The notes under the pieces were generated by a model, which saw nothing but the letters and a program-made list of their open reading frames with translations, did no database searches and had not been told where the DNA came from. The translations under genes and the position numbers were made by a program. Below, piece by piece: positions 1 through 59,224 of a stretch of 64,000 bases of DNA (position 1 is the first letter of the stretch; each line of letters starts with the position of its first letter). This DNA is from an uncultured Oscillospiraceae bacterium (GTDB lineage: Bacteria; Bacillota; Clostridia; Oscillospirales; Oscillospiraceae), in assembly GCA_947624895.1 (NCBI GenBank), contig CANQMK010000001.1, positions 4,270 to 68,269 on the forward strand, read 5' to 3'.

Positions 1-3000
1 CGGCCTTCAGCCGTCTCTCCCTCGCCCTCCACAGCCTGACGGGCGGCGAGACCATCTACCTGACGGACGACATCAAGGTGGGCTTTGCGGCCAAACTGCC
101 GGACGGGGTGGGGGACGTGACCATCAACGGCCAGGGCCACACCATCACCCGGGACAGCTTCGTAAATCCCAATACCATCCTCACGGACCCGGAACTGGGC
201 GATGAGGCGGTCATGAGCATCCTCATGGACCCCGGGATCAGCCTGGCGGCCCTGGAGGACGAAGGGGAGGCGGGCGCCATCCCGCAAGAGCATTACACCG
301 GCGCCATCCTCCAGGTCGGCAAGGGCGACACCGTCACGCTGCAAAACGTGACCATCGACGGAGAGGGCCAGTGGGAGATCGACCAGGAAAAGCTGGAATA
401 TGAGAAAGAGCTGAACAAGAGTTACGATATCGATGTCCTGGAAGACCCGAGGGGCGGCCACCCCATCAGGGAGCTTCTGGGGAACGTGGTCTCCACCGAC
501 AGCCTCATCAAGGTCGCCGGCGGCGCCCTCATACTGGAGGACGTGACCCTGGAGAACTTCTTCGCGGGGGATGGATATGAAGACGACCGACATTTCATCG
601 ACTTCACATCCACCGAAGACGGCAAGCTGGAGGTGACGGGGGCCGGCGCTGTTTTCCAGCATAACGCCTCCCGGTCCGGGGTCTGTATCGGCAACACAGA
701 CAAAAATGAGATCGATCTGGGCGGCTGCACCACCATGGAGGACAACTACTGCTACGGCGGCAACGGCGGCCTGGTGGTGGCGATGGAGGGCACCCAGGTC
801 TATATGGACGAGGGTACGAAGATCCTCAACAACGTGGCGGCGGACACCAACGGCGTCTTCGTCCAGCTGCATAAAAAAACCGATGGGGTCAAAGACGGGG
901 ATAATAAGGGCGAGACCTACGCCAAGCTCCACATGAACGGCGGCGAGATCGGCCACAACGTCGGCCTCCGGGGCGGCTCCTACGGCTGGGGCCAGACGAT
1001 CTATCTCTACAACGGCGGCGCCTTCGAGATGAACGGCGGCGAGATCCACGACAACATCGGCGCGGGCATCAGCAGCATCTATCAGCAGCCCTCCGCCGAC
1101 GCGCTGCGGCTCAACGGCGGATGGATCCACGGCAACACCTGCAGCCTGACCGACGAGGGCACAGATTGGGCGCTGGACATCGCCCTGATGAACATCGGGA
1201 ATGTCGGCGAAGGCATGACCGTGGAGCAAAACTTCGTCGTGGGCGCGGCGGCCATCCTGGGCGGCTACGCCAGCGGCGACGAGTACCTCACCAACGACGG
1301 CACGATCAAGGGAAACATCTCTGTTTATTCCTACTTCAACAACGAAGGGCGCGTCTCCACCGTCGTCAACAACCACATCATCGATGGGAACATCCGGCTT
1401 GAGAACGGCTCGATGATAAAGAACGCGGAGAACGGCGTCATCACAGGCAACGTAACGGTAAGAGGCTCCCTCACGGAGAGCGCGGGCGAGAGCAGCTTCC
1501 ACAACGAAGGTGATATAAAAGGAGACATAGAGCTGGCCGAAGGCGCGCACCTGTACAACAGCGGCGAGGTATACGGCAACGTGACGGTCAAGTCGGGGGG
1601 TACGCTGGAACTCAACTGCAATGAAGAAGGTACGGTGCACGGCGGGACCATCCACGGAAACGTGACGGTCTACCCCGACGGTCTGCTCTACGCGAAGGTG
1701 AGTCCCGCCCTCGTAGACGGCACGATCACCCTGGAGTACGAGGACGAGGAAGACCTGGCGCGCATGAAAGAGGTGCTGCATGACTGCGGGATCCAGTGCT
1801 CCAACATTGTGGAGAAACAGCACGCGCACTCCGAGGTGCTGGATAAAACCGTGATAGAGCCAGACGACGACAAAAAATGCACCGAGCCGTGGGTCACGGT
1901 ATATGTCTGCCAGACCTGCGGGAAGGAGGTCAGCCGGGAGGAGACCACGCCTACGGGCCACCAATACTATGTGGAGAAAGTAGACGAGGCGACCTGCACC
2001 ACGGGGCCAATAGAACACATCCGCTGCAAGCTCTGCAACGCGTATACCAGCTCGACGGCAATGAAGATCCAGGTGGGTGACCCCAACGGGCACACCTATG
2101 TGGAAAACACGCACCTCTACATCCCCCCCACGGAATATGCCTCAGGACACATCTACTATATCTGCACCACCTGCGGCGATGTGTTGGAATTCGAGATCGA
2201 CAAGGTCCATGAGGGCTACACCAAGCATTCCTTCCAGAACGAGGACGGCTCCCTCAAGGAAGAGGCGGGCGTGCTCACCCCGCCAACCTGCACTGCGGAA
2301 GGCGAGATGACCTTCACCTGCGATGACTGTGGAACCACGATAACGGTCCCGGTTCCCGCCGCGGGGCACAGATTCCCCAGAGATCCCGACGAGTATGAAC
2401 AGATCGAACGGGTCGAATCGGGCTGTACGAAGGAAGGGCATATTACCTATAAGCCCCGGTGTACGGTGTGCGGCGAGTTTGACACATCGTCTGGCGCGTA
2501 TACGTACACGGTCAACCTACCCGCCCTCGGCCACGACTGGAGCGAGTGGGAAAACGTGGACTCGGAAAACTATTTTTGCACCACGGAGCGCCTTCAGGAG
2601 CGGCACTGCAAGCGTATGGACGCGGAAGCTGAAGCTGTGGCTGAAGGTGACGGCGACGAGGAAGAAGCCCGCATCATCTGCGACGACCCCAGCAATGCCA
2701 CCGAGACCCGCCTTGGCGGCGAGACGAGCCACACCTGGGACGAGGACAACATCACCTGCCTCGTCTGCGGCTACGTTTCAACCGGCCACCACATCAGCTA
2801 CATGACCAACGGCGGCATCGCGCCCCAGAGCCTGGCCGATATCGCGGGGACCGCCTATAAGCCCGGCAACACGGAGAGCCTCTGGCGGCCCTCCAGCGAT
2901 GAAACGCTGGAAGGCGGCGTATGGACCAAGCAGACCATCAACGGGCAGGCCGTCTTCGTGGGCTGGAGTGCCACCAACCTGGGCGAGACCCCCTGCGAGA

Positions 3001-6000
3001 AAAAGCCCGAGGTCACGTTCATCGCCAGCGTGGTCATCCCCGCGGACGCGGACGCCACCGTCTTCGCGGTCTGGGCCGCGGACAAGAACAAAAACGGCAC
3101 GCCCGACTATCAAGAGACCCCTGTCTCGGTCTTCTACGACAAAAACGGCGGCGCGGGTGACGTGCCCGCTCCCCTGATCGACGTTCTCCCCGGCGCGGCG
3201 TATCCCCTGGAGACAACCCCCGCGCTCACGAAGGGCGCCTACGTCTTCGCAGGCTGGAGCAGGACGCGGTATGACGAGGTGATCAAGACGCCGTTGGAAG
3301 AGCGCGACATAGAGATGGCCCGATCCCTGGTGACCAGTCCCTTCACCGTGCCCGCGGGGGTGGGCGACGTTACCCTCTACGCCGTGTACGCCACGGACGC
3401 GGACGCGGACGGCAAGCCCGACTACTGCAAAGACGCCCTGCACGTGGAGTACTACATCAACGGCGGCCAGGTCCGCGAGGGGTACACCGTGGACGAGAGC
3501 GGTATGTTTTACGTGTGCAACGACTATCACCACCCCGGCGACGACGCCACCCTCCTGGCCCTGGAATACGGCGCGATGATGATCTGCCGGGACGGCGCCG
3601 TGCTGATCGGCTGGAGCGCGGCGCCTGAGGACCTGATCACAAGCGAGGCGAGCGTCGACGGGAAGCCGATCAAAGCAGTCAACCTCACCAGCGCGGAATC
3701 AAACGCGAAAGTATACGCGCTCTGGGCGGCGGACGTCAACCACAATAGCATTGCCGACTACCTGGAGACCACCCTCACCCACACCTACCATCGGAATCAG
3801 TACCTTTCCCAGAGCAATGCGTCGACCCTTCCTGCGGGATACTCCCTGCACGTGACCAAAGCCGAGCCCCCGTTCCAGGTGGACATTCTTCCCGGCACGG
3901 GCGTCGAACTGGCCCCCAACGATTACTTCGACTCCGCCGACCTGCTGGACGACAAGGGCCAGGTGGTCGGTCACTATGTCCAGGTGGGCTGGAGCGGCTA
4001 CTCCCACGGCGCCTGTACGTCCCGGATCGATTATGAGAACTGGGTGATCGCAGGGGAGGCCAACGGATATACGGACGAGGACGGCGTCTATTACCGCGTG
4101 ATCTACGATACGCGGTTCCAGAACGCCTTCGCGGTCTGGGCGTCTGACGAGAACGAAAACGGCATCGCGGATTTTAAAGAGACGTACTACACCATCACCC
4201 TTAACATCAATGGCGGGACCGGCGGAGACGATTTCCAGCGCCAGAGCGTGCTGCTCGACGGCGAATGGTTCACCTTCCCCGCCGACCCCATCAAGGCGGG
4301 CTATACCTTCCGGGGCTGGTCTTCCGACGGCGGCAAGACCCTCCGCCAGGCGGGAGACACATTCAGGGTCACCGCCGACGTGACCTATGTGGCCCTGTAT
4401 GACGAGGTCGCGTTTACGGTCACCCTGGACCTGAACGGCGGCACGGCGGGGGACGACTTCGCAGCCAGCAATCCCGTCAATGCGGGCGAGAGCTTCACCT
4501 TCCCCGCGGACCCCACAAAGGCGGGCTATACCTTCCTGGGCTGGTCCGCTGAGGGTGACGAAAACCTCTACAAGGCCGGGGACACCGTCACAGTCACCGC
4601 CGACGTGACCTACACGGCGCAATACGAGGCGGTCGCCGCGCCCAAGACGTTCCAGGTCACCCTGGACCTGAACGGCGGCACAGCGGGGGAGGGCTTCACA
4701 ACCAAGAATTCCGTCAAGGAGGGCGAGAGCTTCACCTTCCCCGCCGACCCCACGAAGGCAGGCTATACCTTCCTGGGCTGGTCCGCCGTGGGTGACGAAA
4801 ACCTCTACAAGGCCGGGGACACCGTGGCGGTCACCGCCGACGTGACCTACACAGCCCGGTATGAGGAAGTTGCGGTCACGCCCAAGACGTTCACGGTCAC
4901 CCTGGACCTGAACGGCGGCACAGCGGGGGAGGGCTTCACAGCCAAGAATTCCGTCAAGGAGGGCGAGAGCTTCACCTTCCCCGCGGACCCCACAAAGGAG
5001 GGCTACACCTTCCTGGGCTGGTCCTCCGACGGCGGCAAGACGCTCTACAAGGCTGGGGATACCGTGGCGGTCACCGCAGACGTGACCTACACCGCGCAAT
5101 ATGAGGCGGTCGCCGCGCCCAAGACGTTCCAGGTCACCCTGGACCTGAACGGCGGCACGGAAGGGGAGGGCTTCACGGCCAGCACGACGGTCAAGGAGGG
5201 CGAGAGCTTCACCTTCCCCGCCGATCCCACAAAGGAAGGCTACACCTTCCTGGGCTGGTCCGCTGAGGGCGACGAAACCCTCTACAAGGCGGGGGACACC
5301 GTCACGGTCACCGCCGACGTGACCTACACCGCGCAATATGAGGCGGTCGCCGCGCCCAAGACGTTCACGGTCACCCTGGACCTGAACGGCGGCACGGCGG
5401 GGGACGACTTCGCGACCAGCAATCCCGTCAATGCGGGCGAGAGCTTCACCTTCCCCGCCGACCCCACGAAGGCAGGCTATACCTTCCTGGGCTGGTCCGC
5501 TGAAGGTGACGAAAACCTCTACAAGGCCGGGGACACCGTCACAGTCAACGCCGACGTGACCTACACGGCGCAATATGAGGCGGTCGCCGCGCCCAAGACG
5601 TTCCAGGTCACCCTGGACCTGAACGGCGGCACGGCGGGAGACGACTTCACGGCCAAGAATTCCGTCAAGGAGGGCGAGAGCTTCACCTTCCCCGCCGACC
5701 CCGCAAAGGCAGGCTATACCTTCCAGGGCTGGTCCGCCGCGGGCGACGAAACCCTCTACAAGGCGGGGGACACCGTGGCGGTCACCGCCGACGTGACCTA
5801 CACCGCGCAATATGAGGCGGTCGCCGCGCCCAAGACGTTTACGGTCACCCTGGACCTGAACGGCGGCACGGCGGGGGACGACTTCGCAGCCAGCAATCCC
5901 GTCAATGCGGGCGAGAGCTTCACCTTCCCCGCGGACCCCACAAAGGCGGGCTACACCTTCCTGGGCTGGTCCGCTGAAGGTGACGAAAACCTCTACAAGG

Positions 6001-6788
6001 CCGGGGACACCGTCACGGTCAACGCCGACGTGACCTACACCGCGCGGTGGAACGTGCGGGTCGCCTCGGGCAGCGGCAGCGGCCGGACTCCTTCCCCCGC
6101 CATCGACAGGACGGAACACTACGGCTACATCATCGGCGTGACGGCCCATGAGGTCCGGCCCGAACAGGACATCACCCGGGCGGAGGTCGCCACCATCCTC
6201 TTCCGCCTCCTCACCGACGAGGCCCGGGAGGCCAACTGGAGCGAGACGAGCGGCTTCCCCGATGTGCGGAGCGACGCCTGGTACAACCACGCCGTGGCGG
6301 TGCTCCACAACCTGGGCATCGTCCAGGGTGACGGTCACGGCAGCTTCGATCCCGACGACAAGATCACCCGCGCCGAGGTGGCCGCCATGGTGGTCAGGTT
6401 CTACGAGAAGAGCGAGGGGACCGTCCTTGTCAACCGGTTTACCGACGTGGATGAGACGAAGTGGTATACCCAGGCGGTGCTCCTGGCCGACCACTACGAG
6501 TTGATGCAGGGCGACGGGGACCAGTTCAGGCCGGAGGACCCGCTGACCCGCGCCGAGGCCATGGCGGTGTTCAACCGGCTCCTGGGCCGTAAGCCCCACG
6601 AGGATCATCTGCGCGAGGATATGATCGCCTGGACGGACAACATGGATAAGCGCAAGTGGTACTACGCCGAGGTCCAGGAGGCCACAAACTCCCATACGTG
6701 CGGCGGGGATGTGGTGATCGACGGCGAGACCTACGAGACGTGGGAGAGCGTCGAGCCCATGCGCGACTGGGCCGCGCTGGAGCGCTGA
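1..6788 (+). CDS. Giant cell-surface protein, 5'-truncated by window edge (beta-helix region, Cys-rich repeats, Flg_new-type repeats, C-terminal SLH anchor)
   Basis: Frame open from base 3 to TGA 6786-6788. NGGxIxxN beta-helix-like repeats. Six CxxC...GH units. About 12 repeats with the GYxFxGWS signature. Three SLH-like motifs (ITRAE, WY..AV) in the last ~240 aa. Confidence 0.85.
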   Translation, partial: AFSRLSLALHSLTGGETIYLTDDIKVGFAAKLPDGVGDVTINGQGHTITRDSFVNPNTILTDPELGDEAVMSILMDPGISLAALEDEGEAGAIPQEHYTGAILQVGKGDTVTLQNVTIDGEGQWEIDQEKLEYEKELNKSYDIDVLEDPRGGHPIRELLGNVVSTDSLIKVAGGALILEDVTLENFFAGDGYEDDRHFIDFTSTEDGKLEVTGAGAVFQHNASRSGVCIGNTDKNEIDLGGCTTMEDNYCYGGNGGLVVAMEGTQVYMDEGTKILNNVAADTNGVFVQLHKKTDGVKDGDNKGETYAKLHMNGGEIGHNVGLRGGSYGWGQTIYLYNGGAFEMNGGEIHDNIGAGISSIYQQPSADALRLNGGWIHGNTCSLTDEGTDWALDIALMNIGNVGEGMTVEQNFVVGAAAILGGYASGDEYLTNDGTIKGNISVYSYFNNEGRVSTVVNNHIIDGNIRLENGSMIKNAENGVITGNVTVRGSLTESAGESSFHNEGDIKGDIELAEGAHLYNSGEVYGNVTVKSGGTLELNCNEEGTVHGGTIHGNVTVYPDGLLYAKVSPALVDGTITLEYEDEEDLARMKEVLHDCGIQCSNIVEKQHAHSEVLDKTVIEPDDDKKCTEPWVTVYVCQTCGKEVSREETTPTGHQYYVEKVDEATCTTGPIEHIRCKLCNAYTSSTAMKIQVGDPNGHTYVENTHLYIPPTEYASGHIYYICTTCGDVLEFEIDKVHEGYTKHSFQNEDGSLKEEAGVLTPPTCTAEGEMTFTCDDCGTTITVPVPAAGHRFPRDPDEYEQIERVESGCTKEGHITYKPRCTVCGEFDTSSGAYTYTVNLPALGHDWSEWENVDSENYFCTTERLQERHCKRMDAEAEAVAEGDGDEEEARIICDDPSNATETRLGGETSHTWDEDNITCLVCGYVSTGHHISYMTNGGIAPQSLADIAGTAYKPGNTESLWRPSSDETLEGGVWTKQTINGQAVFVGWSATNLGETPCEKKPEVTFIASVVIPADADATVFAVWAADKNKNGTPDYQETPVSVFYDKNGGAGDVPAPLIDVLPGAAYPLETTPALTKGAYVFAGWSRTRYDEVIKTPLEERDIEMARSLVTSPFTVPAGVGDVTLYAVYATDADADGKPDYCKDALHVEYYINGGQVREGYTVDESGMFYVCNDYHHPGDDATLLALEYGAMMICRDGAVLIGWSAAPEDLITSEASVDGKPIKAVNLTSAESNAKVYALWAADVNHNSIADYLETTLTHTYHRNQYLSQSNASTLPAGYSLHVTKAEPPFQVDILPGTGVELAPNDYFDSADLLDDKGQVVGHYVQVGWSGYSHGACTSRIDYENWVIAGEANGYTDEDGVYYRVIYDTRFQNAFAVWASDENENGIADFKETYYTITLNINGGTGGDDFQRQSVLLDGEWFTFPADPIKAGYTFRGWSSDGGKTLRQAGDTFRVTADVTYVALYDEVAFTVTLDLNGGTAGDDFAASNPVNAGESFTFPADPTKAGYTFLGWSAEGDENLYKAGDTVTVTADVTYTAQYEAVAAPKTFQVTLDLNGGTAGEGFTTKNSVKEGESFTFPADPTKAGYTFLGWSAVGDENLYKAGDTVAVTADVTYTARYEEVAVTPKTFTVTLDLNGGTAGEGFTAKNSVKEGESFTFPADPTKEGYTFLGWSSDGGKTLYKAGDTVAVTADVTYTAQYEAVAAPKTFQVTLDLNGGTEGEGFTASTTVKEGESFTFPADPTKEGYTFLGWSAEGDETLYKAGDTVTVTADVTYTAQYEAVAAPKTFTVTLDLNGGTAGDDFATSNPVNAGESFTFPADPTKAGYTFLGWSAEGDENLYKAGDTVTVNADVTYTAQYEAVAAPKTFQVTLDLNGGTAGDDFTAKNSVKEGESFTFPADPAKAGYTFQGWSAAGDETLYKAGDTVAVTADVTYTAQYEAVAAPKTFTVTLDLNGGTAGDDFAASNPVNAGESFTFPADPTKAGYTFLGWSAEGDENLYKAGDTVTVNADVTYTARWNVRVASGSGSGRTPSPAIDRTEHYGYIIGVTAHEVRPEQDITRAEVATILFRLLTDEAREANWSETSGFPDVRSDAWYNHAVAVLHNLGIVQGDGHGSFDPDDKITRAEVAAMVVRFYEKSEGTVLVNRFTDVDETKWYTQAVLLADHYELMQGDGDQFRPEDPLTRAEAMAVFNRLLGRKPHEDHLREDMIAWTDNMDKRKWYYAEVQEATNSHTCGGDVVIDGETYETWESVEPMRDWAALER
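4186..6047 (+). repeat. Eight tandem coding repeats, period 237-240 bp (79-80 aa, TxTLDLNGGT...GYTFLGWS...TADVTYTAQYEAVAAPK)
   Basis: Direct reading: units start near 4186, 4410, 4648, 4888, 5125, 5362, 5599, 5836. The last seven are near-identical at DNA level. Confidence 0.9.
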
Positions 6789-55588: not shown

Positions 55589-55617
55589 ATCACACAATCT
55601 GATTGGAGGAAACCGAT

Positions 55618-57165
55618 ATGGCAATCCAGCAAGTGGACGGCGCCCTGTCCATCGTCATCAAGGGCAAAGAATATCTGCTCATGCCCATCACAAGGGGCGG
55701 CAACATCGAGAACGACGCCGTGACTATTGACGCGCTGGCCGACAATGACGAGATCCTCATTTGGGATGCCAGCGACAAGAGCACGGCCAAAAAGACCACC
55801 TGGGTCGAGGTCAAGCAGTCTGTGCGGGAGAGCATCCCGATCCTCTATCCGCAGATCGTGGTGTCCGTCTCCACCGGCTCCTCGGTCACCTGCTCCAACG
55901 GCGGCACCACCAAGACTGCCCAGGCCGTCGGCGGCGTGGCCACCTTTGAGGTCACCGAGTACGGCGCCTGGACGGTCAAGGCCTCCCTGTCAGGTCAGGA
56001 GTCCTCCAGCGAGGTCATCCAGGTGGATGCCGTCAAAAAATACCCTGTCACGCTCCACTACGCCTCTGTGTTCGGCGTCTGCTGGGATCCGTTGAATCCG
56101 TCCACGGCCCTGGCCCGGCTCACCCAGTCGAGCGACCCCAACGGCTTTGTCACAGTGAATATCAGCACCGAGCCTTCGCCCGCCGTTGGCACCGGGTCGG
56201 GCAGTTCGCCGTTTGACCGCTATGCGCCGTGGAGCCAGATGGACGAATACAACATCGTCAACGGCACTGTCGGCCCGTGCAAGGGGGACGCTGGTTTTTC
56301 CCGCGGGCGTGACACGATGGTTTATATTCCGGAGTTCTGGTTCAAGTTCATGGAGACCGGCGGCAAGCGGTATTTCTACATCGCCGACAAGCCCAAGGAC
56401 GGCTTCGGGCTGCATCCTGGCTCCGGCAAGTATCTGAGCCGCTACTCCATGAGTGAGGACGGTATGTCTAAGACCGGGGTTGCTCCGCTCACGGAGATCA
56501 CCCGCGGGGAGGCCAGGGAGAAAGCCAGGGCCAAGGGCGAAAAGTGGAGCCAGTACGACTACATCACCTGGAACGCCGTGTGGCTGCTCTACCTGGTCGA
56601 GTTCGCCGACTGGGACTGCCAAAAGAAAATCGGTCGAGGCCGTGTTGACATGACGTGGTCGGATGGCAAGGCCGACAACGGCGGTACCGACACCATGTCC
56701 TACCACACCGGGCGGGCCGCCGGCGAAGACGGCAAGACCTGCATTCAGTACCGCCACCTGGAGAATATATGGGGAAATGTCTTCTACTGGATCGACGGTA
56801 TCAACATCAACGTCTTTGACGTGTACATCTGCACGGACCACAAGCTGTACGACGATGATACGGATGTCGGCTACGAATGTATCTACACGACCGACATCAA
56901 TGATGACGGCGGCTACATCAGCGCCATCGCCTCACCCCCGGAAAACGCTCCGTGGGCGTTCCTCCCATCTGGTATCAGTGGGAGCGAGACGACCTACATC
57001 CCGGATTATGGCTATTACTGGGGCGAAAGCGAAGAGTGGTATTTGCCGTGCGGCGGCGGCGGCTGGTACGACCGCTCGGATGCCGGCCTCTTCCAGTTCG
57101 GCGCCGACTATCTGTCGGATGAGACGGGCTCGAGCGACGGCGCGCGACTCCTTTTTAACCCCTAA
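55618..57165 (+). CDS. DGR target: receptor-binding tail protein with C-terminal CLec/FGE-sulfatase-like variable domain
   Basis: YRHLENIWGNVFYWIDG motif. The last 40 codons are the VR matching the TR. Confidence 0.8.
   Translation: MAIQQVDGALSIVIKGKEYLLMPITRGGNIENDAVTIDALADNDEILIWDASDKSTAKKTTWVEVKQSVRESIPILYPQIVVSVSTGSSVTCSNGGTTKTAQAVGGVATFEVTEYGAWTVKASLSGQESSSEVIQVDAVKKYPVTLHYASVFGVCWDPLNPSTALARLTQSSDPNGFVTVNISTEPSPAVGTGSGSSPFDRYAPWSQMDEYNIVNGTVGPCKGDAGFSRGRDTMVYIPEFWFKFMETGGKRYFYIADKPKDGFGLHPGSGKYLSRYSMSEDGMSKTGVAPLTEITRGEAREKARAKGEKWSQYDYITWNAVWLLYLVEFADWDCQKKIGRGRVDMTWSDGKADNGGTDTMSYHTGRAAGEDGKTCIQYRHLENIWGNVFYWIDGININVFDVYICTDHKLYDDDTDVGYECIYTTDINDDGGYISAIASPPENAPWAFLPSGISGSETTYIPDYGYYWGESEEWYLPCGGGGWYDRSDAGLFQFGADYLSDETGSSDGARLLFNP
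57042..57153 (+). repeat. DGR variable region (VR)
   Basis: 112-nt gap-free match to 57407-57518. 13 mismatches, all at TR adenines. Confidence 0.9.
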
Positions 57166-57172
57166 TGGGGGA

Positions 57173-57192
57173 CCGGGGGCCGCAGCCCCCGG
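57173..57192 (+). promoter_or_regulatory. GC hairpin downstream of VR (DGR target-recognition hairpin/cruciform candidate)
   Basis: CCGGGGGC-CGCA-GCCCCCGG, 8 nt after the stop codon. Absent after the TR. Confidence 0.65.
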
Positions 57193-57406: not shown

Positions 57407-57518
57407 TTTGCCGTACGGCGGCGGCAACTGGAACAACCGCTCGAATGCCGGCCTCTTCCAGTTCAACGCCAACTATCTGTCGGATGAGACGAACTCGAAC
57501 GACGGCGCGCGACACCTT
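57407..57518 (+). repeat. DGR template repeat (TR)
   Basis: Asn-codon (AAC)-rich invariant copy of the VR, 127 nt upstream of the RT start. Confidence 0.9.
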
Positions 57519-57645: not shown

Positions 57646-58872
57646 ATGCCGAAACGAGTAGGCAACATCTACGCCCGGATGGAGGCCCCCGACTTCATCC
57701 GAAGGTGTATCGCGATCGGGACAAGAGACAGCAAGAAGCGGCGCCGCCGGGACGTGCGCCGTGTACTTGCCGACCTGGACGGCCATGTGGCCACGATGCA
57801 ACGCATTGTGCGGGAGCGGTCCTTTTGCCCTCGCCAGCCGAACCAGAGGACGATCTACGACGTCAGCAGCCAGAAGAACCGGGACACCAACAGTGTCCCG
57901 TTTTTCCCGGACGCCCTCATGCACATCATGGAAGTCCAAGCCATGATGGATGTCCTCATGCGTGGGATGTGCCACTGGTCGTGTTCCTCTGTCCCTGGCC
58001 GGGGAGGGAGGCGGGTGTACCTCCGGCTCAAGAGCGCCATGAAGAACGACCCGAAGGGGACACGGTACGCCGCCGAACTGGACGTCAAGAGCTACTATCC
58101 GAGCCTGCCGCTGGACAGGCTCATGGAGGCGTTCGAGCGTAAGATCAAGGACAGGGAATTTTTGCTTCTGCTGGCCCTCTCCCTGACCTGCCGCCCCATC
58201 TCGCTCCAGGAGGCCAAAGACCAGGGCCTCACATGGAGGGACATCACCCAGGGGCGCCGGGGGCTGTTCATCGGCTTCTACCTCTGCCAGTGGGCGGCCA
58301 ACTACTACCTAGAGCCGCTCGACCGTTTCATCATGACCCTGCCCGGCGTGAAGTACATGACCCGCCACATGGACAACATCACCCTGCTGGGGCCGAGCAA
58401 GCGAGATCTCCACAAGGCGGTGAACGCCATCCGGGACTTTATGGGCCGGGAACTGGGGCTGACCATGAAGGAGAACTGGCAGGTCTACCGCACCAGCTTC
58501 ACCGCCGCCGTGGAGAAGCGCCACCGCCTGCTGACGGAGAGGCAACGGAGGCTACGCCGCCCCCGCATGGTGTCGGCAGTGGGCTACCGCTTCGCCCACA
58601 CCCACGTCACCATCCGCAAGCGGAACTTCCTCCGGCTCACCCGGCAGGCCCGCCGGACGAAAAAGCGGATAGAGGCGAAGAAGCCCATATCCCCGCGGCT
58701 GGCCGCCGGCCTTTTGAGTCGGATCGGCCAGCTCAAGCACAGCAACAGCTACAACGTGAGGACGAAATACATAGACCCCATCGGGGTCAAAGTTCTAAAG
58801 GAGGTCGTGCGAAATGAGAGTGCGAGGAAGTGTTGCTCCCAGCAACGCCTTTACAGTGGAGGAGCAGCCTAA
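57646..58872 (+). CDS. DGR-type reverse transcriptase with atypical HMDN catalytic box
   Basis: RT motifs 1-7 are readable. IGFYLCQWAANYYL corresponds to the DGR IGxxxSQ..AN.YL motif. Motif C reads RHMDN. Confidence 0.8.
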   Translation: MPKRVGNIYARMEAPDFIRRCIAIGTRDSKKRRRRDVRRVLADLDGHVATMQRIVRERSFCPRQPNQRTIYDVSSQKNRDTNSVPFFPDALMHIMEVQAMMDVLMRGMCHWSCSSVPGRGGRRVYLRLKSAMKNDPKGTRYAAELDVKSYYPSLPLDRLMEAFERKIKDREFLLLLALSLTCRPISLQEAKDQGLTWRDITQGRRGLFIGFYLCQWAANYYLEPLDRFIMTLPGVKYMTRHMDNITLLGPSKRDLHKAVNAIRDFMGRELGLTMKENWQVYRTSFTAAVEKRHRLLTERQRRLRRPRMVSAVGYRFAHTHVTIRKRNFLRLTRQARRTKKRIEAKKPISPRLAAGLLSRIGQLKHSNSYNVRTKYIDPIGVKVLKEVVRNESARKCCSQQRLYSGGAA

Positions 58873-59224
58873 CAAGCCGGGGTTCTGCCTGATCCGCTTC
58901 TTCGAGGATGTTCAGCCCTACGAAGAGGAAGGCCCCCATGGGAAGCCCATCACCGGCTTTGAGTACGACGAGTACCATCTTGAGGTCGCCGACTACGACG
59001 GCCTGGAGAACGACGTGCTCAATGGGTTTGACGGGTATCTGGCCCAGGCGAAGCTCCAGGAGGCCGAAGGGAAGATCATCCCCGCCCTTCAGACCCAGGT
59101 GGCCGCTCTGGAGCTGGAAAAGGCCGAACTGACCGACAAGGTCATTAACTTGGAGGGACAGGTCACCGACACCCAAATGGCCCTCTGCGACGTCTTCGAG
59201 CTGGCGTTGGGAGGTGAGCGGTAA
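58814..59224 (+). CDS. Hypothetical tail-associated protein (XkdW-position) with C-terminal coiled coil
   Basis: RBS AAAGGAGG 58798-58805. Overlaps the RT 3' end by 59 nt. Confidence 0.45.
   Translation: MRVRGSVAPSNAFTVEEQPNKPGFCLIRFFEDVQPYEEEGPHGKPITGFEYDEYHLEVADYDGLENDVLNGFDGYLAQAKLQEAEGKIIPALQTQVAALELEKAELTDKVINLEGQVTDTQMALCDVFELALGGER

Follow-up and report, generated by a model that had tools for sequence, protein, structure and literature searches.

A DGR in a contractile-tailed temperate phage

The window, i.e., the whole stretch of 64,000 nucleotides from an uncultured Oscillospiraceae bacterium analysed here (contig CANQMK010000001.1), carries a diversity-generating retroelement (DGR) in which a tail target gene with its variable repeat (VR) is followed by the template repeat (TR) and by the reverse transcriptase (RT) gene. 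Its components are located as follows:

55603-57165, + strand: DGR target gene coding for a 520-aa phage tail protein with the VR at its C-terminal end (phrog_5302 tail protein, E 4e-68)
57042-57153, + strand: VR, which recurs 365 nt downstream, in direct orientation, as the TR
57136-57148, + strand: IMH-like, GC-rich 3' end of the VR, GACGGCGCGCGAC, the same in the TR, read from the VR/TR alignment
57173-57192, + strand: GC hairpin of 8 bp with a 4-nt loop (CCGGGGGC CGCA GCCCCCGG), from RNA folding
57407-57518, + strand: TR, with 25 adenines in 112 nt, identical in the related contig L131
57646-58872, + strand: DGR RT of 408 aa, an ATG-started ORF of the DN type, i.e., with Asp-Asn in place of the Asp-Asp of motif C

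The VR lies within the last 40 codons of the tail protein gene. Its internal mismatches with the TR number 13 and all of them fall at TR adenines (chance ~3e-9), so that the 13 A-site changes counted in the original prediction were right. By likeness to the DGR of the Bordetella phage, GACGGCGCGCGAC would act as the IMH (PMC3240598). The hairpin, which begins ~20 nt past the VR, is a candidate for the element of target recognition in DGRs (Guo et al. 2011, PMC3240598), for a terminator, or for both. Of the features by which a DGR is operationally recognized, the following are found together: an RT of the DGR clade, a TR/VR pair with adenine mismatches, a VR at the 3' end of the target gene and, when the window is compared with L131 and in other sets of DN-type loci, VR adenine sites that vary beside a constant TR. 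An avd gene beside the TR and RT, the mark of the Avd-dependent Architecture B, was not found among the ORFs that flank this cassette. Neither avd nor any other accessory gene was found around the cassette on comparison of the flanking ORFs with Pfam and PHROG, and the gap between VR and TR is too small for any ORF.

Genes for a terminase, portal, protease, major head protein, sheath, tape measure and baseplate lie upstream of the DGR, and those for an amidase, a holin-like protein and an HTH repressor lie downstream. The window represents a temperate phage or prophage with a contractile tail, and the layout of the DGR, its target and its phage are ordinary. At the left end, an ORF of 2,236 aa (78-6788) exhibits only weak PHROG matches, to families of unknown function. 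The GC content is 50% at 8-10 kb vs ~60% in the rest of the window, which may mark the boundary of a module or element.

Two further features of the region may be mentioned. The RT bears an N-terminal extension (57646-57830, residues 1-60) and a long, very basic helical C-terminus (58540-58869, residues ~300-408), and these extensions might stand in for Avd in an accessory-free lineage. A 136-aa acidic ORF at 58814-59224 overlaps the 3' end of the RT gene by 59 nt and is conserved in place in loci L131 to L137 (135-136 aa) with no Pfam or PHROG matches; it could be an unrecognized DGR accessory gene or merely a gene of the tail or lysis module. Two ORFs of 41 and 57 aa separate it from the lysis genes.

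The RT lacks the canonical motifs C and 4

The 408-aa protein matches the RT family phrog_1423 (E 6e-70), and bRT, the RT of Bordetella phage BPP-1, comes out as its closest PDB entry whether sequence, profile or fold is compared. Four of its motifs are of concern here:

58075-58083, + strand: motif A, E144-L145-D146, in which D146 corresponds to the catalytic Asp D138 of bRT in the alignments
58270-58290, + strand: motif 4, IGFYLCQ (canonical [I/V/L]GxxxSQ), in which Ile and Gln are kept and Ser is replaced by Cys
58366-58377, + strand: motif C, H241-M242-D243-N244, encoded by cac atg gac aac (canonical YMDD)
58573-58578, + strand: motif E, S310-A311, in SAVGY (DFLGY in DD-type enzymes), covarying with N244

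The protein therefore fails both the motif 4 signature of canonical DGR RTs, [I/V/L]GxxxSQ, and their motif 5 (motif C) signature, Y/F-x-D-D. Motif 4 departs at C214-Q215 (tgc cag, 58285-58290), and two residues before the catalytic Asp of motif A (position -2) there is a Glu, E144, where canonical DGR RTs have a Lys (K136 in bRT). In phmmer alignments against the PDB, RYMDDIVVLG of bRT is aligned to RHMDNITLLG, and IGSLTSQLFANVY of bRT to IGFYLCQWAANY; D243 thereby corresponds to bRT D215 and N244 to bRT D216. A profile built from 36 members of the clade gives an identical register against bRT and group II intron RTs. The AF2 model of the protein (pLDDT 89.5, pTM 0.82) places motif A on a strand (141-147) and motif C on a hairpin (237-241/244-249) with M242-D243 as the turn, and its best fold match in the PDB is bRT 8ub7_A (E 3e-17, TM 0.87 on the target, rmsd 2.8 A). 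Since the phmmer alignment, the clade profile and the AF2 model give one and the same register, there is no motif C elsewhere with a normal DD pair. HMDN instead of YxDD and CQ instead of the SQ of DGR RTs had both been predicted with the exact residues and coordinates, and the sequence, profile and fold alignments concur on both.

YxDD is taken as the hallmark of every RT and is mutated as the standard dead control. Replacing the second Asp of HIV-1 RT is reportedly strongly deleterious. The dead bRT control used in the field carries YMDD>SMAA. In the DGR RT set of Schillinger et al. (2012), both Asp were 100% conserved and the Tyr was replaced by Phe only (PMC3521204). In the literature searched, a body that leaves most subscription journals outside, we found no description of an RT with a YMDN, YxDN or HMDN motif, nor any data on single substitutions at the second Asp of a DGR RT, the paper on the reconstituted-DGR screen included.

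The DN motif is conserved and under purifying selection

A single G-to-A change would suffice to turn GAC into the AAC codon at 58375-58377, and HMDN could in principle reflect a sequencing or assembly error. This explanation has a negligible probability. The same AAC codon occurs in the window, in L131 and, from independent assemblies, in L132 to L137. Its presence in five independent assemblies from close relatives speaks against an error of base calling. Additionally, a survey of the 120 closest homologues (49-100% identity) revealed the Asn of xMDN in all 120 and DD in none. The variants found were YMDN (61), HMDN (54), NMDN (4), HLDN (1) and QMDN (1). Motif 4 is similarly uniform in lacking its Ser: CQ was found in 101 of these homologues, NQ in 10 and DQ in 9, and SQ in none.

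Selection on the RT gene is purifying. Pairwise comparisons of the 408-aa RT with relatives of 81-85% identity gave dN/dS of 0.12-0.20 at dS ~0.6. In a 36-sequence alignment of the clade, in which mean column identity is 65%, E144, D146, D243 and N244 are invariant; so are the fingers residues K77 and R79 and the Ile and Gln that contact the dNTP.

These data bear on the view that the RT is a recently inactivated pseudo-enzyme whose VR differences are relics of past activity. The replacements Tyr to His and Asp to Asn do resemble loss-of-function changes, in a motif that was 100% conserved among 155 DGR RTs (PMC3521204). Against this, the Asn is shared by every homologue down to 49% identity, dN/dS is low, and neither relaxed selection nor mainly non-adenine TR/VR mismatches were seen in the DN clade. 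Together with the recent VR turnover described below, they leave the pseudo-enzyme very improbable.

The first residue of motif C is variable throughout the superclade, where Y, H, N or Q occur among DN and DD members alike, and adenine-only mismatches are found whichever of the four is present. A sister clade (L017, L023, L025, L026, L029, L030, L032 and L113) carries N-M-D-D with N/D-Q in motif 4, and its TR/VR mismatches are cleanly adenine-only. Consequently, the Tyr of motif C appears to be dispensable as well in this DGR superclade.

DGRs with DN-type RTs diversify their targets

About 130 loci were collected from GTDB genomes and IMG/VR by alignment-based scans, since a locus search with the single protein had given only 4 loci, and TR/VR pairs were sought with a self-BLAST detector. 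Nearly every DN-type RT with enough upstream DNA was found to have a TR ~130-270 nt upstream of the RT and a VR a further 230-380 nt upstream of the TR. The TR/VR mismatches are almost purely at adenines (17/17 in L011, 20/20 in L063, 18/18 in L038; also 15/15), and the independent DN lineage of L044 and L045 has 17 of 18 and 10 of 10 mismatches at adenine sites.

Comparison of nearly identical elements reveals recent activity. L131, an ENA metagenome contig, encodes an RT one residue off that of the window (M95L) and has an identical TR. The two VRs differ at 11 positions, each of them a TR adenine, as against 2 differences in 4,655 aligned positions outside the VR. Such adenine-only turnover recurs in other DN sets: three YMDN sets in which RT, TR and flanks are identical vary at VR adenine sites alone. 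Within L062/L063/L103 and within L097-L100, the RT genes (YMDN) and the TRs are identical and the upstream kb shows 0-1 differences, while the VRs differ at 7-21 positions, every one a TR adenine. The proposal that diversification predates the decay of the RT is thereby contradicted, given purifying selection, the universal Asn and recent adenine-only VR turnover beside near-identical RTs. L134-L137, from four sequencing runs, have identical RTs, are clonal and show no VR variation; they are uninformative on activity as such and indicate that activity is not constant.

The L131 contig ends inside its VR (L131 1-20 vs window 57035-57060), a break that may reflect heterogeneity of the population, and an apparent extra GGC triplet was seen in the CGG-repeat at the 5' end of this VR. 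A group of YMDN loci ~58% identical to the 408-aa RT (L039, L056, L057 and L058-L061) has no clean TR/VR adjoining the RT as judged by the self-BLAST detector, in L039, L058 and L060 despite 8 kb of upstream DNA; these may be remote-target DGRs, degenerate cassettes or detector misses.

A different objection is that the DN protein is a dead RNA-binding scaffold and that the cDNA is made in trans by a host DNA polymerase or by some canonical DGR RT encoded at another place in the host. The second Asp is counted in the catalytic triad of RTs, bRT included (bioRxiv 10.1101/2023.10.23.563531), and co-residence does occur: the Oscillospiraceae chromosome OY762913.1 carries a DD-type locus (L019) and a DN-type locus (L020), each with its own TR/VR pair. 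Yet no second RT was found within the 64-kb window, DN RTs are accompanied by their own adjacent TR at >60 loci in many host genera, and a mere scaffold would not need the invariant D146, D243, Ile, Gln, K77 and R79. We consider the scaffold improbable. The suggestion that another RT acts in trans is likewise unsupported by the content of the window and by the adjacent TRs. On these comparative data, the HMDN/CQ state arises neither from decay nor from a sequencing error, and the enzyme is not a dead one.

The preferred reading is that the window holds an intact, currently active DGR, carried by a temperate phage with a contractile tail from gut Clostridia (Oscillospiraceae-type), and that its DN RT would be functional with a co-ordinately remodelled active site; we assign it a probability of about 85%.

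The outcome of diversification differs little between DN loci and their DD sisters. The share of TR adenines that are changed is 45% and 48%, respectively, and changed adenines become G/T/C at 59/31/10% in DN loci vs 47/42/11% in the DD sisters. A substitution spectrum specific to DN enzymes was considered, yet there is only a modest A-to-G shift (59% vs 47%), from which no conclusion is drawn because selection on the VR and relatedness of the loci confound it. The shift could come from VR selection or from a real change of misincorporation preference.

The CQ motif had been noted as a concern for adenine mutagenesis, in which I181 and R74 of bRT promote adenine misincorporation and a Q187P change leaves misincorporation frequency unchanged (PMC7826257). 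In the bRT structure, I181 and Q187 touch the incoming dNTP (bioRxiv 10.1101/2023.10.23.563531). The 408-aa RT keeps both dNTP-contacting residues, as I209 and Q215, and the motif 4 Ser alone is replaced. The concern is unfounded, the Ile and Gln being those tested or seen in structures (PMC7826257; bioRxiv 10.1101/2023.10.23.563531); it is also countered by the C/N/D-Q clades, which have adenine-only mismatches whether DD or DN.

Second-site changes coupled to the motif C Asn

Covariation was analysed in 243 RTs that are <90% identical. As the sample was seeded from a DN query, its proportions are unlike those of DGR RTs at large. The column most tightly coupled to position 244 is 144 (0.89 of 1.0 bit), two residues before the motif A Asp. 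Glu at 144 occurs with Asn at 244 in 106 RTs and Lys with Asp in 101, and neither of the crossed pairs, Glu with Asp or Lys with Asn, occurs at all; Gln at 144 is found in both D/N states, 18 and 8 times. A crude NJ tree gives ~10 changes of the D/N state, and Lys at 144 is found in none of the 12 DN blocks and Glu in none of the 23 DD blocks. With the covarying columns masked, at least 5 DN lineages have their nearest relatives among DD enzymes rather than among the remaining DN lineages. YxDN/CQ is thus evidently, as far as sequence comparison can tell, a conserved and recurrent variant with a tightly coupled second-site change, and a functional one.

After 144, the columns most coupled to 244 are 311 (Phe in DD, Ala or another small residue in DN), 310 (Asp vs Ser, Ala or Asn) and 246 (Val vs Thr), of which 310 and 311 belong to the DFLGY segment of motif E. 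The small independent DN lineages repeat the changes at 144 and 311, those at 310 being less consistent. By motif register, we take positions 144, 244, 246, 310 and 311 to be V108, D186, Y188, L228 and W229 of HIV-1 RT. These HIV-1 residues pack beneath the YMDD hairpin, which suggests a co-ordinated remodelling of the support of the hairpin. An acidic residue at motif A -2 is compatible with RT chemistry, because profile alignment places an Asp there in group II intron RTs (VDMD, VDID).

An argument from net charge was also considered. The sum over positions 144, 244 and 310 comes to -1 in the majority of DD enzymes and likewise of DN enzymes, which is suggestive, but it is not relied on because 310 is inconsistent in the small DN lineages.

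Comparison with known systems

The DGR of Bordetella phage BPP-1 (mtd-avd-TR-brt; bRT 8ub7 and others) has an RT with the same fold (TM 0.87), which likewise carries the motif 4 Ile and Gln and both Asp that ligate Mg2+. Its TR and VR, too, differ at adenines only, its VR lies at the 3' end of the gene for a receptor-binding tail protein, and a hairpin comes after the GC-rich end of that VR. Unlike the window cassette, it has avd, and its RT is only 19% identical to the 408-aa protein. The latter is 80 aa longer, with its N-terminal and basic C-terminal extensions, and changes YMDD to HMDN, SQ to CQ, LKSD to AELD in motif A and NFLGY to SAVGY in motif E.

The target-TR-RT order with no recognizable accessory gene resembles that of the accessory-free DGRs (Architecture A; the avd-lacking lineage of Wu et al. 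2018, PMC5758913). Architecture A makes up 29% of the DGRs of that survey; DGRs of this kind are found in Firmicutes and their phages, and the text as consulted makes no mention of active-site variation (PMC5758913).

A further comparison is offered by the sister DGRs with YMDD or NMDD RTs (e.g., L108-L128, L017, L029), which are 40-47% identical overall and up to 69% in the core. Like the DN loci, they have C/N-Q as their motif 4, mismatches at adenines only, this cassette layout and this type of tail target. They differ in that DD is kept, along with a Lys at -2 of motif A and the DF of motif E. These RTs are natural controls for the DN state.

Active right-hand polymerases with an Asn in motif C are found among RNA viruses, namely the L proteins of the Mononegavirales (GDN) and birnavirus VP1 (ADN). 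They are RNA-dependent RNA polymerases and not close homologues of the DN RTs, so that the likeness is an analogy only.

How a DN active site could work

In the cryo-EM structure of bRT, Mg2+ is modelled 2.2 and 2.3 A from D138 of motif A and D215, and D216 is listed among the catalytic aspartates and not given as a Mg2+ ligand (bioRxiv 10.1101/2023.10.23.563531). The equivalents of both ligands are kept in the 408-aa RT as D146 and D243. The DN-type RT would accordingly be able to make adenine-mutagenized cDNA from the TR transcript, with Mg2+ held by D146 and D243 and the incoming dNTP contacted by the Ile and Gln; that the 408-aa enzyme itself catalyses this reaction is a prediction. The loss of the second Asp does not stand alone and is accompanied by the Lys-to-Glu change at motif A -2, by the Phe-to-small and Asp-to-Ser/Ala changes in motif E and by the Val-to-Thr change two residues past the Asn, all presumably packed under the catalytic hairpin as the motif register suggests. 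The likeliest form of this remodelling would be a charge-conserving rewiring in which a Lys-Asp pair becomes a Glu-Asn pair. E144 and N244 may be in spatial contact, as their covariation suggests, and E144 may have a role in metal binding, possibly as the source of a third carboxylate.

A more specific proposal holds that the motif A strand, through Lys to Glu at -2, has taken over the third carboxylate that motif C lost with Asp to Asn, that the packing under the hairpin is altered with it (motif E Phe to Ala, Val to Thr) and that this switch evolved several times in DGRs. We offer it tentatively and regard it as rather unlikely. In such a centre, the geometry at metal A would differ, and metal preference or fidelity might be altered as well.

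The original prediction had included a functional, non-canonical active site among its explanations, and this part fits the comparative data. Its description as mechanistically new was too strong, because both Mg2+-ligating Asp are kept, RNA-virus polymerases provide DN precedents, and the substitution spectra of DN and DD loci are nearly alike.

The repeated D-to-N change, each time with Lys to Glu, bears on the role of the second Asp of motif C. For bRT it predicts that D216N alone would be defective and that K136E would rescue it.

DN-type RTs in gut phages

Individual protein clusters of the DN-type clade comprise hundreds to thousands of member sequences, and the named hosts are mostly gut Oscillospiraceae and relatives (Faecousia, Yanshouia, Hominicoprocola, Agathobaculum, Dysosmobacter and Flavonifractor). 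The DGR RTs of gut phages that apparently work in nature with YxDN form a large and abundant clade. The large DGR catalogues surely contain members of it; in the literature searched, we found no sign that the active-site feature had been noted. Real DGRs would be missed wherever pipelines or curators discard RTs without DD or SQ as degenerate. With a DD-type and a DN-type RT on one chromosome, OY762913.1 would provide a natural system for the cross-action of the two types.
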